DNA of 64,000 nucleotides from Leptospiraceae bacterium (GCA_016708435.1 JADJFV010000035.1:128001-192000); one strand, 5' to 3'; positions 7,742-31,754 are shown, counted from the stretch's first letter. Translations and numbers: made by a program. The notes: a model not told the origin generated them from the letters alone.

Positions 7742-8344
7742 TTACAAAGGATTCAGAATAAAGATTTTCAAAAGCTGAAAACTTTGCTGGATATTTTTAC
7801 TAAGTAGAGTCTTATTAGTCTTAGCCTCTACTAACTCAAATTCAAATTCTGTATCGAGTTGATGATGGGAAAAAGGTAATCCAAAGGGTAATAAATAGAT
7901 ACCGAATACACTTAATCCGTACAAAGTATATGTTCTTTTAATATCTGTTTTTAAAATCTTTCCACGCAATATAAAATCGGCATCTTTACTATCAGACTCA
8001 GTGGCTACATATACTTCTTTGAATTTTTGATAAGACTGGATTTCTTTTTTCAAAGCATAAGTTAGGACTTTATTGGTTTGATAAAAAGCAAACGGCTCAA
8101 ATATTCTTTTATGTGAATTATCTGTTTCCCAAAGAACGAATGGGAACAAAATATAACCCATGTCAGTTTCATAATCTTTCTGCCTCAAATCTTGCATTAA
8201 TTCAATCGCAAATGATTTTGAAATTTTTTCACTTTCAATTTTTTTTGGTTTAGGTATAAAAAAAAATCTGTTTTGAATATTACAGTTTATAAAGAAAAAC
8301 ATAAGGAAAATAAGAATAAGCCGCTTTAAAAGAGTTAGATTCAT
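7742..8344 (-). CDS. Putative lipoprotein (paralog of the upstream gene)
   Basis: Signal peptide plus lipobox 'FFINC'. The C-terminal half aligns with the neighbour (KDADFILRGKILK / TEFEFELVEAKTNKTLL versus KDADFLISCKLKK / TEFELELKEIKTNQVVL). Confidence 0.5.
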   Translation of the reverse strand: MNLTLLKRLILIFLMFFFINCNIQNRFFFIPKPKKIESEKISKSFAIELMQDLRQKDYETDMGYILFPFVLWETDNSHKRIFEPFAFYQTNKVLTYALKKEIQSYQKFKEVYVATESDSKDADFILRGKILKTDIKRTYTLYGLSVFGIYLLPFGLPFSHHQLDTEFEFELVEAKTNKTLLSKNIQQSFQLLKIFILNPL

Positions 8345-9084
8345 TTTTTATTTTCCTCAAAGTATTGAATTATTTCTTTACTCATTTCTTGAACTACTTT
8401 TTGGTTAAGCAGGACAAACCTATTCACAACCTTTTCATTACTTGTCACAGTGATTTCCCAATCAGATTCTTCTTTAGTGAAAGTTTTTCGCAAAACTACT
8501 TGGTTTGTTTTAATCTCTTTCAGTTCTAATTCAAATTCTGTCTTTATTGTAAAAAAGTCCGTTATTAAAGCAAGCCACAGATACGGTAAAGGCCATTCCT
8601 TTAGAAATACAAAAGCACCTGTGCCGTAAATTGTTTGCTTGCTATAAATTTGATTCTTTTTCAATTTACAGCTAATCAAAAAATCCGCATCTTTAGGATT
8701 GGTTCTATCAGTATAAAAAATTTTATCAAATACATTATAGTCAACTAATTCCGACTCCATCGCTTTTGCTAAATCAATCTCAGGTAAAAAAATTAGTCTA
8801 TAATAAAACGTATTCTCAGATTTATTAAAAAAATTTGAAGCATACGGCATAAAAGGAATGTATAGCATTGGCATATAAGAAATATTTTCATTTTTCCTTT
8901 CATCTACAAATGTTTGAATTGCAATTTTCTTTTTACTTTTAAATATTATTGGTTCTTTATTCGATCTAACAAAATTAAATTTGTAAGAATATATTTCCGG
9001 ATAATCAGCAGTAGAACAAGACAGGATAAACACGAATAGCCCAAGAATGCATTTCGTAGAAATAAATCTCATAAGAGATAACAT
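8341..9084 (-). CDS. Putative lipoprotein (tandem paralog)
   Basis: Signal peptide plus lipobox 'ILSC'. It shares the conserved C-terminal block with 7742..8344, and its stop overlaps the next gene's start. Confidence 0.5.
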   Translation of the reverse strand: MLSLMRFISTKCILGLFVFILSCSTADYPEIYSYKFNFVRSNKEPIIFKSKKKIAIQTFVDERKNENISYMPMLYIPFMPYASNFFNKSENTFYYRLIFLPEIDLAKAMESELVDYNVFDKIFYTDRTNPKDADFLISCKLKKNQIYSKQTIYGTGAFVFLKEWPLPYLWLALITDFFTIKTEFELELKEIKTNQVVLRKTFTKEESDWEITVTSNEKVVNRFVLLNQKVVQEMSKEIIQYFEENKK

Positions 9085-9313
9085 TGTTATACCGCTATTT
9101 TTGAGTCAATCTTTTTTACAATTTTGCAAGCTAACATAAACTTAGCCCGCGGCAGCGAACCCACCGTTAGGTGTAAACCAATCCTCAGCGCGGGGAACGC
9201 TGACATATCATTTCTTTTGCGAAGAAATGATAATAGCGATAGCGTAAGGTGAGAAAATAAGAGTTTACGAAACCCGTTGCTTTGTGTTAAAGTGTAGAAA
9301 CAGGAGAATTACA

Positions 9314-9606
9314 ATGCCTGTTACGATTGAAAATATTAAAATATATGAAGTCTCAGAAATTGCAAAAAAATTAAAAGCAAAAACAAAAGACATTGAAAAT
9401 TTAGTTATCAAGAAAAAACTAAACGGACAAAAAATCGGAAACAAATATTATGTTTCCGAAAATAGCCAAAATATTTTTTTAACAGTAACTCAAATATTCT
9501 TTCTGGTTGGGAAAATTTTCATAACGAAGCACTGAAAGCAAGAAAAGAACATGAATCAGGGAAAGACAAAGGAAAAACTATGAAAGAAGTTTTTGGAAAT
9601 GATTGA
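9314..9606 (+). pseudogene. Antitoxin-like gene with an N-terminal excisionase/MerR-type HTH, frameshifted inside a T7 run
   Basis: HTH 'IYEVSEIAKKLKAKTKDIENLVIKKKLNGQKIGNKYYV'. The -1 frame after the T7 run at 9474-9480 continues '...SGWENFHNEALKARKEHESGKDKGKTMKEVFGND*', ending 2 nt before the toxin ATG. Confidence 0.45.
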
Positions 9607-9608
9607 CA

Positions 9609-9885
9609 ATGTATACTATTCTCATTAAAAAAAGAGCAGAAAAATTTATTTCCAAAGCTGAGAAGAATTTAAAAATATTACTCAAAAGCCATTTAGATAA
9701 TTTATCAGAAAATCCATTTATTGGGGAAGAATTGAAGAAAGATAAAAAAAGGAATTTTATCTTTCCATTTTAAATACAATAAAACGGATTATAGAATTGC
9801 CTACTTAATTGAACGAAATGAAATTCATATTTTACCTATTGGCACGAGAGAAAACTTTTACAAAGAATTAACTCAAATACTTTAA
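9609..9885 (+). pseudogene. RelE/ParE-family toxin gene, frameshifted in an A7 run
   Basis: Frame 0 gives 'MYTILIKKRAEKFISKAEKNLKILLKSHLDNLSENPFIGEELKKDKK'. After the A7 run at 9744-9750 the +1 frame gives 'GILSFHFKYNKTDYRIAYLIERNEIHILPIGTRENFYKELTQIL', a RelE/ParE fold signature (basic YR-I-Y core). Deleting one A restores a single 91-aa ORF. Confidence 0.5.
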
Positions 9886-9915
9886 TCAATCGCTCTAACT
9901 ATTTGCAATCTTGCT

Positions 9916-10776
9916 TCACAACCTATTTATAATCTCCGCTACTTCTTTCGGCTTCTCTAAGTGAATGGCATGTCTTGTGTGTTCGAGTAATATGAGTTTG
10001 CTACCACGGATATAGGACTTTAAAGTTCTCATGGCTTCGGGAGTTGTGATTAAGTCTTGTTTGCCGGAGATGATCCAAGTAGGGATTTTGATTTTACGGG
10101 CTTCGGAACCAAAGAAGATTTCATTTTCGCGCTCGATTGTGTTTTCGGCTAAGAACTTGTATTCTCTACTGTTCCATGCATGGACTAATGTCTTACGAAT
10201 GAGTTTAGATGGCATGGGAGTTTCTTTGTAATATAAATGCTGTAAGAGTCGCCCGACTTCTTCGTGATCAGCAGGAAATAACACAGCGCGCATTTTATCT
10301 CTTTCAGGATGAGGAATTCCTCCAGAAGAAAGTAATACCAGTTTTTGAATTCGTTTTATCTTACTGTCTTTTATCGCGATATGTTGCGAAATCAGCCCTC
10401 CCATGGAATGACCGCATAATATGATGTTATCCAGTGAAAGTATTTGAAATAATTTGTAGATCATATCCGAAAAAATATCTACTTGATAAAGATACTGAAT
10501 TTGTGGAAGCTTGCTTTTTCCAAATCCAGGTATGTCGATTATATTGAGTTTATATTTTTTATCTAGAAAAGGAATTATTTTTCTAAATCCGAAGGCTGAA
10601 TCTAAAAGTCCATGAATGAGAACAAGCGGCTGACCGTCATTTGGCGATACAAAGTAACTAATGTTATGCCCACCTATGTCCGCATAACATTGTTTTAACC
10701 CTAAGTCTTTTGTTAATACTTTGTAACGGGTGTAAGAAAAATATTTGTATATAAGATTGTATAAAATTTGATTCAT
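9916..10776 (-). CDS. Alpha/beta-fold hydrolase
   Basis: 'LVLIHGLLDS' oxyanion region and the 'GHSMGG' nucleophile elbow; 286 aa. Confidence 0.75.
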   Translation of the reverse strand: MNQILYNLIYKYFSYTRYKVLTKDLGLKQCYADIGGHNISYFVSPNDGQPLVLIHGLLDSAFGFRKIIPFLDKKYKLNIIDIPGFGKSKLPQIQYLYQVDIFSDMIYKLFQILSLDNIILCGHSMGGLISQHIAIKDSKIKRIQKLVLLSSGGIPHPERDKMRAVLFPADHEEVGRLLQHLYYKETPMPSKLIRKTLVHAWNSREYKFLAENTIERENEIFFGSEARKIKIPTWIISGKQDLITTPEAMRTLKSYIRGSKLILLEHTRHAIHLEKPKEVAEIINRL

Positions 10777-29012: not shown

Positions 29013-29660
29013 ATGAATACAACCACAATGGAAAAAGAAAAAACGGTTGTTCCTGTAGAATCAGAGATTCTTTCAAAACCAGCCACAGCTAATTTTGAAG
29101 GACAGACTCCGCTTCATGTAGCAACAAATCAAGGTGATATCGAACTGGCAAGAACGTTAATCGCCAAAGGTTCCGATGTAAATGCTGTCACAAATTTCTG
29201 GCATACGCCTTTGCATTATGCGGTAAACCGTGGAGGTTACGAAATTGCAAAACTACTTTTAGATAGTGGTGCTAAGGTAAATGCTCTAAGTAATTTCGAT
29301 TACACTCCGCTTCATTATGCCGCTAACCATGGAAAGGTAAGAGTCGCTGAACTTTTAATTGACAAAGGGGCTGCACTAAATATTCAAAATACTTTCGGTC
29401 ATACTCCTCTTCATTGCACGGCTAATCATCCGAAGATTCAATCTGATTGCGATAATTGTAAGAATGGTCGCTATATATTCTGTGGGGGAGTCCATGGTCG
29501 GACTGAAATCGCAAGATTGCTCGTCGATAAAGGTGCAAAGTTAAATTTAGAAGATGGAGATGGAAATACAGCTCTCGAAATTGCCAAAAAGTTTGGCTAT
29601 GCCGAAATGGTGCATATAATTGAAGCAGGATTATTAATGCATACTAGAAGAATGGGTTAA
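29013..29660 (+). CDS. Ankyrin-repeat protein (paralog A)
   Basis: Four to five ANK repeats ('GxTPLHxAxxxGHxExxxxLLxxGA'). Confidence 0.85.
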   Translation: MNTTTMEKEKTVVPVESEILSKPATANFEGQTPLHVATNQGDIELARTLIAKGSDVNAVTNFWHTPLHYAVNRGGYEIAKLLLDSGAKVNALSNFDYTPLHYAANHGKVRVAELLIDKGAALNIQNTFGHTPLHCTANHPKIQSDCDNCKNGRYIFCGGVHGRTEIARLLVDKGAKLNLEDGDGNTALEIAKKFGYAEMVHIIEAGLLMHTRRMG

Positions 29661-30586
29661 GAGTGTTTAATTAAATAGCATTTGTGAATTTTGTCATTTC
29701 GAAAGTCTTCGGGGATCGTATCTCTGGTAATGTCTTGCACATTATCTGTGTTAATCGCATCCCCGTTAAGCTTAAATTTTTGAAAGTTATTTGAGAATAA
29801 TATTATTCCGTCTTGGTTTAAATGATCTAAGCAGTGGTTGATTAGAAATGGATGATCTTTTTGAACGTCAAATGGAATCGGCATTTTCTTAGAGCGAGAA
29901 AACGTCGGAGGATCAATCACTATTAAATCAAATCTCCAGCTTTGTTTCATATTTTCTAAAAAGAATTGCACGTTTTCTCTGATCGCAATATGGTTAAATT
30001 TCTCTAGTCCGTTTAATTGGAAGTTGTCGCGTGACCAATCACAATAGGTATTTGACATATCTACCGATGTCGTATAACGCACACCTGCCTTCGCTGCAAC
30101 AACACTAAAAGAAGAAGTATAGGAGAATAGGTTTAACATTCTCTCTTTACCTTTTGCGAATTCATTTTTTACAAGAGTGCGAGTCTTTCTGTGATCTAAA
30201 AATATTCCTGTGTCTAAATAGTCTTTTAGGTTTACAATTAGCTTTGCGTCATTTTCCCGGATTACAAATCTTTCTTTTTCGGAAGCTACTTTTTCGTATT
30301 GTGCTCCTTCTTTTTGTCTGCGACGGGATTTATAGTATTGGTTTTTTGATGAAATGCCTAGAACTTTTTCTACTGCTAATCCAATTTGTTCTATCAGCAA
30401 ATCTTCATTCGCCGTAGAATCGTCTTCATAGATTTGGATATGGGCTTTCTTTAGATAGATATCAATCGCAGCCGGAAATTCCTGTAATTCCCTATCATAG
30501 ACTCGATAGGCATCTATTTTATTTTTTAAAATCCAGGAATCTAATTTTCCCTGGTTGCTAGTTAAAATTTCTATTAATTCATTCAT
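29657..30586 (-). CDS. Class I SAM-dependent methyltransferase (PF10672 / RlmI-RlmK-like core without PUA/THUMP)
   Basis: 'GIFLDHRKTR' (RlmI-like), the SAM-binding region and the motif IV 'IVIDPPTFSRSKK'. Confidence 0.6.
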   Translation of the reverse strand: MNELIEILTSNQGKLDSWILKNKIDAYRVYDRELQEFPAAIDIYLKKAHIQIYEDDSTANEDLLIEQIGLAVEKVLGISSKNQYYKSRRRQKEGAQYEKVASEKERFVIRENDAKLIVNLKDYLDTGIFLDHRKTRTLVKNEFAKGKERMLNLFSYTSSFSVVAAKAGVRYTTSVDMSNTYCDWSRDNFQLNGLEKFNHIAIRENVQFFLENMKQSWRFDLIVIDPPTFSRSKKMPIPFDVQKDHPFLINHCLDHLNQDGIILFSNNFQKFKLNGDAINTDNVQDITRDTIPEDFRNDKIHKCYLIKHS

Positions 30587-30683
30587 GGATTATTACTACT
30601 TTTTTTGGTAAGAGTGAATAGAAAAGTTTTTTAACTAACACGGTCACCTCTCACGATAAAGCAGTTCGAGGTGACTGTAAAAG

Positions 30684-31754
30684 TCAGCCTTGCTCTCTTT
30701 CTAAAAGGCTATTTAGTAAATCAGGACTGATGTTTAGGTTTCCAATCTTCTGTGCATTCTTCGCAAGGTCACGCATAGCGCGACTGACGATTTGTTGTGA
30801 ATTCATCTGATTAGCCGCTAAGACTTCTAATAGCTCAGGGCTAAGTCCTGCAAGAGCGTTAAGCTCTAAGCGTAAAGCTTCTCCTTTTGCTTTGGAAGCC
30901 TGAATTGTATTTTCGGATTGGTGGCTAACAAGTTTTTTGCGCTCTTCTTCTCTTAGAATTTCTGCTTTTAATCTTTGGGATTCAATTTCATCTTCTTTTT
31001 CTTGCATTGCCATTTGTGAATTCATTCTAGCTTCTTCTAAGAGACTTTGTTTTTCTTGAACGGCAATTTCTATATTCATTTGCTCTTCGCGGATTTTGCG
31101 ATTTTTTTCTTCGATTGCGATTTGTGTTTGTAATTCGTTTTCTTTGATTTTACGCTCTTGCTCTACTGCAAAATTTCTTCTTACGTAAATGGCTTCGTCT
31201 GCTTCTTTGAGGAGTGTTTCTCTCGCACTTGCTTCGAGGGCTCTAGACATTTCGGGAGTAGGACTTACCTTTAGAATGGCAAAGTCTACTACTTCGATTC
31301 CGAGTGCGGATAAGGATTCGTTATCTTTCAGTCTGGATTTAACATGAGTGACTAGCTCACTTCCTGACTTGAGGGCAGTGCGAAGATCCATACCGGAAAG
31401 CTTTTCGCGAATCGTTACTTGGATAACGTTTGTTAGCCGGACTGGAAGTTTTTCAAATCCATCTCCTGTGTAACGACCATTAGCATCTACGGCAAAATCA
31501 AGTAAGCCGGCAAGTTTTGTGGGTTGTAAGACTCGATAGGTGAACTGACCCTGAATGTTTATTTCCTGATAGTCAATTGTAGTCTCTTTGAAAATAAACG
31601 GCGAATCACAACTAGCCGCAGGAACAATGACTACGTTAGCAGAAGGAGCATAGTAAAAAAAACTAAGACCTGTTCCTTCTGCACGAATTTTACCTTTGCG
31701 ATAAAGAATTGCATAATCGGTAGGACGAACTTTTATAAATCGAATTCCAAACAT
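30684..31754 (-). CDS. SPFH/band-7 (prohibitin/flotillin-like) domain protein with a C-terminal coiled coil
   Basis: N-terminal SPFH core followed by long E/K/Q-rich heptad-like repeats. Confidence 0.6.
   Translation of the reverse strand: MFGIRFIKVRPTDYAILYRKGKIRAEGTGLSFFYYAPSANVVIVPAASCDSPFIFKETTIDYQEINIQGQFTYRVLQPTKLAGLLDFAVDANGRYTGDGFEKLPVRLTNVIQVTIREKLSGMDLRTALKSGSELVTHVKSRLKDNESLSALGIEVVDFAILKVSPTPEMSRALEASARETLLKEADEAIYVRRNFAVEQERKIKENELQTQIAIEEKNRKIREEQMNIEIAVQEKQSLLEEARMNSQMAMQEKEDEIESQRLKAEILREEERKKLVSHQSENTIQASKAKGEALRLELNALAGLSPELLEVLAANQMNSQQIVSRAMRDLAKNAQKIGNLNISPDLLNSLLEREQG

Follow-up and report, generated by a model that had tools for sequence, protein, structure and literature searches.

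A chromosomal RelE-family toxin-antitoxin pair with homopolymer frameshifts in both genes in a Leptospiraceae bacterium

The DNA analysed here, called the window throughout, is a stretch of 64,000 nucleotides from a wastewater Leptospiraceae bacterium (GCA_016708435.1 JADJFV010000035.1:128001-192000), and all positions are counted from its first letter. Two small genes at 9314-9885 are very probably what is left of a type II toxin-antitoxin operon of the chromosome, both of them inactivated by one-base homopolymer slips. Sequence comparison across public assemblies shows that the two frameshifts are real mutations and not sequencing errors, and the locus is a pair of toxin-antitoxin pseudogenes that is recent in evolutionary terms and of an ordinary kind.

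Layout of the locus and identity of its genes

An earlier, sequence-only reading of the window had described here an antitoxin gene and a toxin gene with the close spacing typical of such modules, both broken at homopolymer runs, and this description is confirmed. The T7 and A7 runs, read directly from the sequence, lie exactly where it had placed them (Table 1). Adding one T, which is equivalent to the -1 shift it had called for, gives an antitoxin of 97 aa that ends in TGA at 9604-9606, two nucleotides before the toxin ATG at 9609, and removing one A gives, as it had predicted, a toxin of 91 aa that ends in TAA at 9883-9885. Unrepaired, the antitoxin ORF covers 9314-9535 (73 aa, TGA stop at 9533-9535) and the toxin ORF 9609-9773 (54 aa). 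After repair, the locus has the type II layout of two small co-oriented genes with the antitoxin upstream and a 2-nt gap, and the same gap is found in an intact orthologue (L014/L015).

Table 1. Features of the locus in window coordinates
Feature	Position	Strand	Basis
Conserved upstream block, including RBS AGGAGA at 9302-9307	9258..9313	+	conservation; RBS from sequence
Antitoxin N-terminal part, aa 1-55, HTH_17 / excisionase-type DNA-binding domain	9314..9480	+	PF12728 match
T7 run, antitoxin-breaking frameshift; 1 nt fewer than ancestral T8	9474..9480	+	locus comparison
Antitoxin out-of-frame 18-aa tail LTVTQIFFLVGKIFITKH; Leu codon TTA spans 9479-9481	9481..9535	+	translation
Antitoxin C-terminal part, aa 57-97 ancestral, now out of frame; predicted toxin-neutralising tail	9481..9606	+	
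Toxin N-terminal part, aa 1-47: strand 1 and two helices (E3-6, H8-16, H19-34)	9609..9750	+	
A7 run, toxin-breaking frameshift; 1 nt more than ancestral A6	9744..9750	+	locus comparison
Toxin out-of-frame 7-aa tail RNFIFPF, codons from 9750; TAA at 9771-9773	9751..9773	+	translation
Toxin C-terminal part, aa 48-91, out of frame: three-strand sheet and C-terminal helix	9751..9885	+	

The upstream block is conserved among the window, two intact orthologous loci (L014 and L012) and a locus of a further lineage (L086), and the DNA farther upstream diverges; the promoter and operator of the pair presumably lie within the block. A consensus promoter scan made no convincing call of a sigma-70 promoter on the + strand directly upstream of 9314, and Rfam found no RNA family in window 8900-10000 at E up to 1. 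The antitoxin coding sequence also contains, at 9435-9459 on the minus strand, a hairpin resembling a terminator and followed by a T-tail (TCGGAAACATAATATTTGTTTCCGA TTTTTTGTCC), which is probably a by-product of that coding sequence. The DNA around the conserved block also differs between lineages. About 100 nt of extra GC-rich DNA, at window 9140-9260 upstream of the antitoxin promoter, is absent from L014, L012 and L086; a hairpin (9185-9203) and a perfect inverted repeat of 11 nt (9206-9216 / 9222-9232) lie within it, and it occurs as a single copy in the window and has no Rfam match. Its core CCTAACGGTGGGTTCGCTGCCGCG (9148-9171, minus) recurs in two contigs of a further lineage, L086 3291-3340 and L087 855-905, exactly at a deletion of the toxin gene, and the insert may be a small mobile or repeat element. 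In addition, the first 2565 nt of L014, with Band_7 and methyltransferase genes 2-5 kb upstream of the intact pair, correspond to window 29096-31643, about 20 kb away and inverted, so that the lineages differ by a rearrangement adjoining the locus.

Through the A7 run the toxin frame is shifted at codon 48, leaving no uninterrupted translatable toxin gene. All of the family-invariant residues H53, K55, R62, R80 and Y84 fall in the out-of-frame C-terminal part, where a scan found no ATG, GTG or TTG start; some public annotations place in this part a 47-aa fragment that carries the PF15781 match.

The identities proposed earlier, an HTH antitoxin and a toxin of the RelE/ParE superfamily, are borne out by Pfam, family-profile, PDB and fold matches. 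The repaired toxin matches PF15781 (ParE-like_toxin) with E 9.4e-17 and 61.2 bits (cut-off 28) over profile positions 2-86 of 87; this match spans the frameshift point and was obtained only after in-silico removal of one A, and, together with the intact orthologues of the antitoxin and the toxin, it indicates that in each of the two genes the halves belong together and are not a chance association. PF05016 (ParE_toxin) is matched with E 2.6e-7 and 31.5 bits (cut-off 23), the best NCBIfam match is RelE_StbE, below its cut-off, and a 61%-identical homologue is named RelE by JGI. A search of the PDB with the single toxin sequence gave no match. A profile of 19 family members matched E. coli RelE best (E 6e-9), together with other RelE chains, RelG (Rv2866), YoeB and archaeal RelE, and matched no ParE chain at E up to 10; hhalign aligned the toxin family with E. 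coli RelE at 95.9% probability.

The AlphaFold model of the toxin, built on nine sequences (pLDDT 91.4, elements E-H-H-E-E-E-H), has the compact alpha/beta fold of RelE/ParE proteins, with an N-terminal helical hairpin packed on an antiparallel sheet. Foldseek gave it a probability of 1.00 against RelE, RelE1/2, HigB2, YafQ and ParE2 structures, the best matches being the RelE-type nucleases 4fxe, 9g12, 3g5o and 4v7k with TM 0.68-0.76, against 0.50-0.55 for ParE matches (about 0.55 for ParE2). The basic and aromatic catalytic residues of E. coli RelE are K52/K54, R61, R81 and Y87. Toxin residues K55, R62 and R80, all invariant in the family, align with RelE K54, R61 and R81; RelE K52 has no aligned counterpart, an invariant H53 lying nearby, and the family-invariant Y84, beyond the region aligned to RelE, is a candidate equivalent of Y87.

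By these comparisons the toxin looks more like RelE, an mRNA interferase, than like ParE, a gyrase poison, and the ancestral protein was most likely a ribosome-dependent mRNA endonuclease. That it was a ParE-type DNA-gyrase poison, which would leave the history of decay unchanged, is unlikely: the names of the best Pfam matches and the occurrence of ParE2 and ParDE structures among the fold matches would suit such an activity, but the profile matches to RelE, YoeB and RelG chains and to no ParE chain at E up to 10, the higher TM values for RelE-type nucleases, the invariance of the three residues aligned with RelE and the RelE names from NCBIfam and JGI all speak against it.

For the antitoxin, PF12728 (HTH_17) matches residues 11-49; the window protein scores below the cut-off of 27 (E 0.0063, 17.2 bits), and the domain is matched in 9/9 aligned members of the family, with a best E of 5.3e-6. 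The antitoxin has few relatives in the protein search, and its intact allele (P0016) is named 'helix-turn-helix domain-containing protein' by NCBI. Its structural model is of low confidence (pLDDT 58.6) and has a strand-HTH-hairpin-helix topology, which fits a putative winged HTH (1-56) joined by a floppy linker (57-65) to a C-terminal helix. The frameshift, at residue 55/56, falls on the domain boundary and coincides with the predicted low-confidence linker. In the family, W66, F69, H70, E72, A73, H80, G83 and K84 are invariant, and the repaired protein ends in ...GKTMKEVFGND.

Distant homologues of the toxin (32-45% identity), found in Clostridia, Syntrophomonadaceae, Peptoniphilus, Nitrospirota and other hosts, sit behind antitoxins of the AbrB/SpoVT type or of other types, to which the window antitoxin has no similarity detectable by phmmer. 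Nevertheless, the C-terminal ending '..G.TM.E/D.FG..' is common to the window antitoxin and the AbrB/SpoVT-type ones (...KGSTMKDIFGSGDE vs ...KGKTMKEVFGND). The sharing of this motif by otherwise unrelated antitoxins suggests that the segment lost through the T7 frameshift is the toxin-binding part, and the antitoxin is thus predicted to consist of a DNA-binding domain and a separate toxin-binding C-terminal region. Its composition is a further case of modular shuffling, familiar among antitoxins, and combines an HTH_17 head with the tail motif found on the AbrB-type partners of this toxin family; such a head is unusual, not unprecedented.

The two lesions in independent assemblies

The sequence-only reading had left open whether both genes had decayed or whether an intact module was disguised by homopolymer errors, and of these explanations only decay has stood. 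The 572-nt segment 9314-9885 was found exactly in 17 further fetched loci; as these include several re-fetches of the same contig, distinct accessions carrying T7 and A7 were counted separately, and there are at least 15 of them (ERZ28653834, ERZ28653779, ERZ28653964, ERZ28653844, ERZ27239170, ERZ28573675, ERZ15184913, ERZ15185012, ERZ22161298, ERZ964821, the last labelled wastewater metagenome, GCA_018057905.1, GCA_016718635.1, GCA_020049755.1, GCA_020051655.1 and SRR11674011). They comprise NCBI MAGs, ENA assemblies and Logan contigs from several SRA runs, and contig names of the k141_, k127_ and NODE_..._cov_ styles indicate MEGAHIT and SPAdes short-read assemblies. Judged from contig names, the lesions are therefore not confined to one assembly or one sequencing technology; the independence and short-read origin of the assemblies were judged from accession numbers, contig-name styles and SNP patterns. 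Relative to the window, the flanks of the contigs with T7 and A7 show 3-25 SNPs per 3.5-6 kb in varying combinations, which points to separate populations and not to copies of one assembly. At the protein level, the truncated toxin of 54 aa (P0004) was found exactly in 37 blocks of a public protein collection and the truncated antitoxin of 73 aa in 29 blocks, and a search among about 15 billion proteins gave no intact toxin above 91% identity to the repaired one.

An intact module in the living organism, with both frameshifts arising from errors of sequencing or assembly, is scarcely credible against this evidence. Each lesion alters the length of a homopolymer, now 7 nt, by one base, and it is at such runs that long-read and pyrosequencing platforms classically err; the window also does carry a private T5 in place of T6 at 7793 that is seen in no other conspecific assembly. 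However, the same T7 and A7 recur in different samples and projects with flanks that differ by SNPs, the truncated toxin recurs in the protein collection with no intact conspecific counterpart there, and 52 A/T homopolymers of at least 7 nt occur within intact ORFs of at least 200 aa in the window, so that its assembly generally reads such runs in frame. In sister lineages, by contrast with the species of the window, the loci are intact.

Other length differences and products were seen in this comparison. The T-run at 7789-7793 is T5 in the window and T6 in 9/9 other conspecific assemblies covering the site, and it shortens the product of the gene at 7742-8344 (minus), a 225-aa hypothetical protein, to 200 aa. 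Either a mutation private to the window or a true homopolymer error in its assembly could account for this; unlike the toxin-antitoxin lesions, the difference has no corroboration in other assemblies, and it means that the window assembly is not beyond suspicion in general. At window 7239, within a T-rich stretch just downstream of the end of an ilvD-like gene, a single-T indel is polymorphic among conspecifics, the T being absent in three of the loci (L003, L004 and L005). Among public gene calls at the toxin-antitoxin locus (P0021, P0024 and P0025), some read TGA as Trp and yield, for example, 'antitoxin' products of 104 aa and 119 aa, and one product of 136 aa comes from a chimeric contig fused to the truncated toxin; these are annotation artefacts, not variants.

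Lineage states and the order of decay

Four states of the locus were found (Table 2). The intact orthologues encode an antitoxin of 87-96% identity and a toxin of 88-91% identity, and their loci align with the window base for base, with no difference in length other than T8 vs T7 and A6 vs A7. One of them, L014 (GCA_025360185.1), is a Leptospiraceae MAG with the same neighbour genes on both sides as in the window (lipoprotein, alpha/beta-hydrolase, adenylate/guanylate-cyclase, DoxX and MsrB), and L011-L013 are short contigs. In the further lineage the toxin gene is replaced by about 55 nt of unrelated GC-rich DNA, and the orphan antitoxin has four altered C-terminal residues. About 2 kb upstream of this orphan, L086 carries at 693-1310 a second putative toxin-antitoxin pair, in which a gene of 83 aa precedes a PIN-domain gene of 120 aa.

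Table 2. States of the toxin-antitoxin locus among lineages
State	T run	A run	Relation to window	Loci or assemblies
Both intact (97 aa and 91 aa)	T8	A6	sister lineages, about 88-90% nt identity	L014, L011-L013
Antitoxin intact (P0016), toxin broken	T8	A7	conspecific	GCA_016720625.1, SRR14932682, SRR11674008, SRR11673992
Both broken	T7	A7	conspecific	window and at least 15 other assemblies
Toxin deleted, antitoxin kept (orphan, 97 aa)	in frame	none	further lineage	JGI 3300036715, 3300035180

The comparison of aligned loci shows A7 and T7 both to be derived states. A7 is present in all conspecific assemblies read (19 or more, including those with T8), and the antitoxin lesion is polymorphic in the species, with T7 in most assemblies and T8 in four; the T8 conspecific allele also retains the ancestral T at 9468. 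By parsimony, this distribution implies that the toxin broke first and the antitoxin second, and we infer this as the likely order of events.

The history of the module can thus be sketched as follows. In the ancestor, one promoter would have driven an antitoxin of 97 aa, with an HTH_17-type DNA-binding domain at its N-terminus and, at the other end, a tail wrapping the toxin, and, starting 2 nt past the antitoxin stop, a RelE-like toxin of 91 aa of the RelE/ParE superfamily, the sizes of both genes being those of the intact orthologues. Replication slippage would then have added one A to the A6 run at toxin codons 45-47. As this slip removes the beta-sheet and every conserved catalytic-type residue, the toxin would have been dead, and with nothing left to neutralise, the antitoxin would have been free to decay. 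In most strains, the window included, the T8 run would subsequently have lost one T, removing the toxin-binding tail and leaving an HTH stub of 73 aa. We infer, within this scheme, autoregulation by the HTH domain of the antitoxin, a nuclease mechanism for the toxin and loss of function of both genes.

Substitutions in the two genes are consistent with relaxed selection, in numbers too small for significance. The toxin of the window branch carries F5L, Y28H, Y50L and L76P, the last at a position where each of the 60 inspected homologues has a hydrophobic residue. Changes on the window lineage number 5 nonsynonymous and 4 synonymous in the toxin, with a crude dN/dS of about 0.28 vs about 0.14-0.15 on sister branches, and 3 nonsynonymous and 7 synonymous in the antitoxin. 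Neither repaired frame contains further stop codons, which suggests either a recent origin of the lesions, when set against the 10% divergence between the species and its sister lineages, or residual constraint. At the antitoxin SNPs 9416 (K34E) and 9468 (L52Q) the window has A/A, L003 G/A, L009 G/T and the outgroups A/T, and the presence of all four haplotypes, with the outgroup counted, indicates that, within the species, recombination or recurrent mutation has acted across these 52 nt.

The module has a narrow distribution. Among 185,579 species representatives, for which the search did not return the window's species, a close copy of the toxin was found in only one other Leptospiraceae genome, and the toxin-antitoxin module is restricted, among these representatives, to Leptospiraceae MAGs; conspecific assemblies were compared by way of exact matches to the proteins of the locus. 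A scan of JGI metagenomes with a pattern allowing a variable length of the A run, GAAGAAAGATAAAAAAN{0,2}GGNATTTWWTCTTT, gave no match.

Several features of the two sites would fit a functional role of the frameshifts, through programmed ribosomal frameshifting, transcriptional slippage or phase variation, in a module that is expressed at a low level or is switchable. The zero-frame antitoxin site T_TTT_TTA (9474-9480 plus A) is a classic X_XXY_YYZ heptamer, at which a -1 slip would yield the full antitoxin with only one residue altered, F to L; at the toxin site AAA_AGG, where AGG is a rare codon (3.1 per 1000 codons in the window), a +1 slip would restore the exact ancestral toxin. Moreover, the variation of the T run between T7 and T8 among conspecific strains, the four haplotypes at 9416/9468, which fit recombination or recurrent change, and the stop-free repaired frames can be read in the same way. 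Nevertheless, such a role is very improbable. Both sites are derived, and all orthologues of the sister lineages as well as the distant homologues are in frame, so that there is no conserved recoding signal; the RNA downstream of the two sites folds no better than shuffles (z = +0.68 and -1.32); the toxin A7 has no A6 counterpart in any conspecific assembly and so does not act as a switch; the toxin was simply lost by deletion in a different lineage; and the window toxin also carries L76P. Seven-base runs are, in addition, short for efficient transcriptional slippage.

A related idea is that, once the toxin was dead, the HTH protein was retained because it served as a transcription factor or an anti-addiction antitoxin, with T7/T8 as an ON/OFF (contingency) switch between strains, or that rare recoding at T_TTT_TTA and AAA_AGG yields traces of the full-length proteins. 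The T7/T8 polymorphism, the four-haplotype pattern and the lack of secondary stops are compatible with it, and we consider it equally improbable.

Comparison with known systems and meaning of the locus

The module reconstructed here resembles E. coli RelBE (PDB 4fxe, 4v7k) in being a type II operon of two genes in which the antitoxin leads, in the size of its toxin (about 90-95 aa) and its fold (TM about 0.7, with the profile match to RelE given above), in the conservation of the residues equivalent to K54, R61 and R81 in the toxin family, and in having the toxin-binding part, predicted here, in the C-terminal region of the antitoxin. It differs in that its toxin is only about 21% identical to E. 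coli RelE, a RelE-like activity being assigned from homology, in that the head of its antitoxin is of the HTH_17 / excisionase-like type, unlike the ribbon-helix-helix of E. coli RelB, and in that both of its genes are frameshifted. With the PF15781 family, the toxin shares a full-length match, the near-invariant C-terminal motif GTRENFYKELK and the YRIAY strand, whereas its relatives in that family are only about 32-45% identical and are paired with AbrB/SpoVT-type or other antitoxins.

Degenerating chromosomal toxin-antitoxin systems and orphan antitoxins are documented phenomena, with examples in the chromosomal ccdAB of E. coli and in the orphan antitoxins of Klebsiella and Mycobacterium (PMC7354431). 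As in those systems, the function of a chromosomal toxin would here have been lost, after which the antitoxin decayed or was orphaned; there is no difference in principle, the particular feature of the present case being that both slips occurred in A/T homopolymers of a genome with 35% GC.

The locus has little significance beyond its correct annotation: it should be recorded as two pseudogenes of a RelE-family type II module, and neither as three 'hypothetical proteins' nor 'corrected' as an error. It also illustrates that, for AT-rich MAGs, a comparison of independent public assemblies can settle the nature of homopolymer frameshifts with no recourse to reads. All stages of decay, from intact through toxin-dead to both-dead, and also toxin-deleted in a further lineage, are found at one orthologous locus, which makes it a tidy natural example of the expected order of decay for a chromosomal toxin-antitoxin module.
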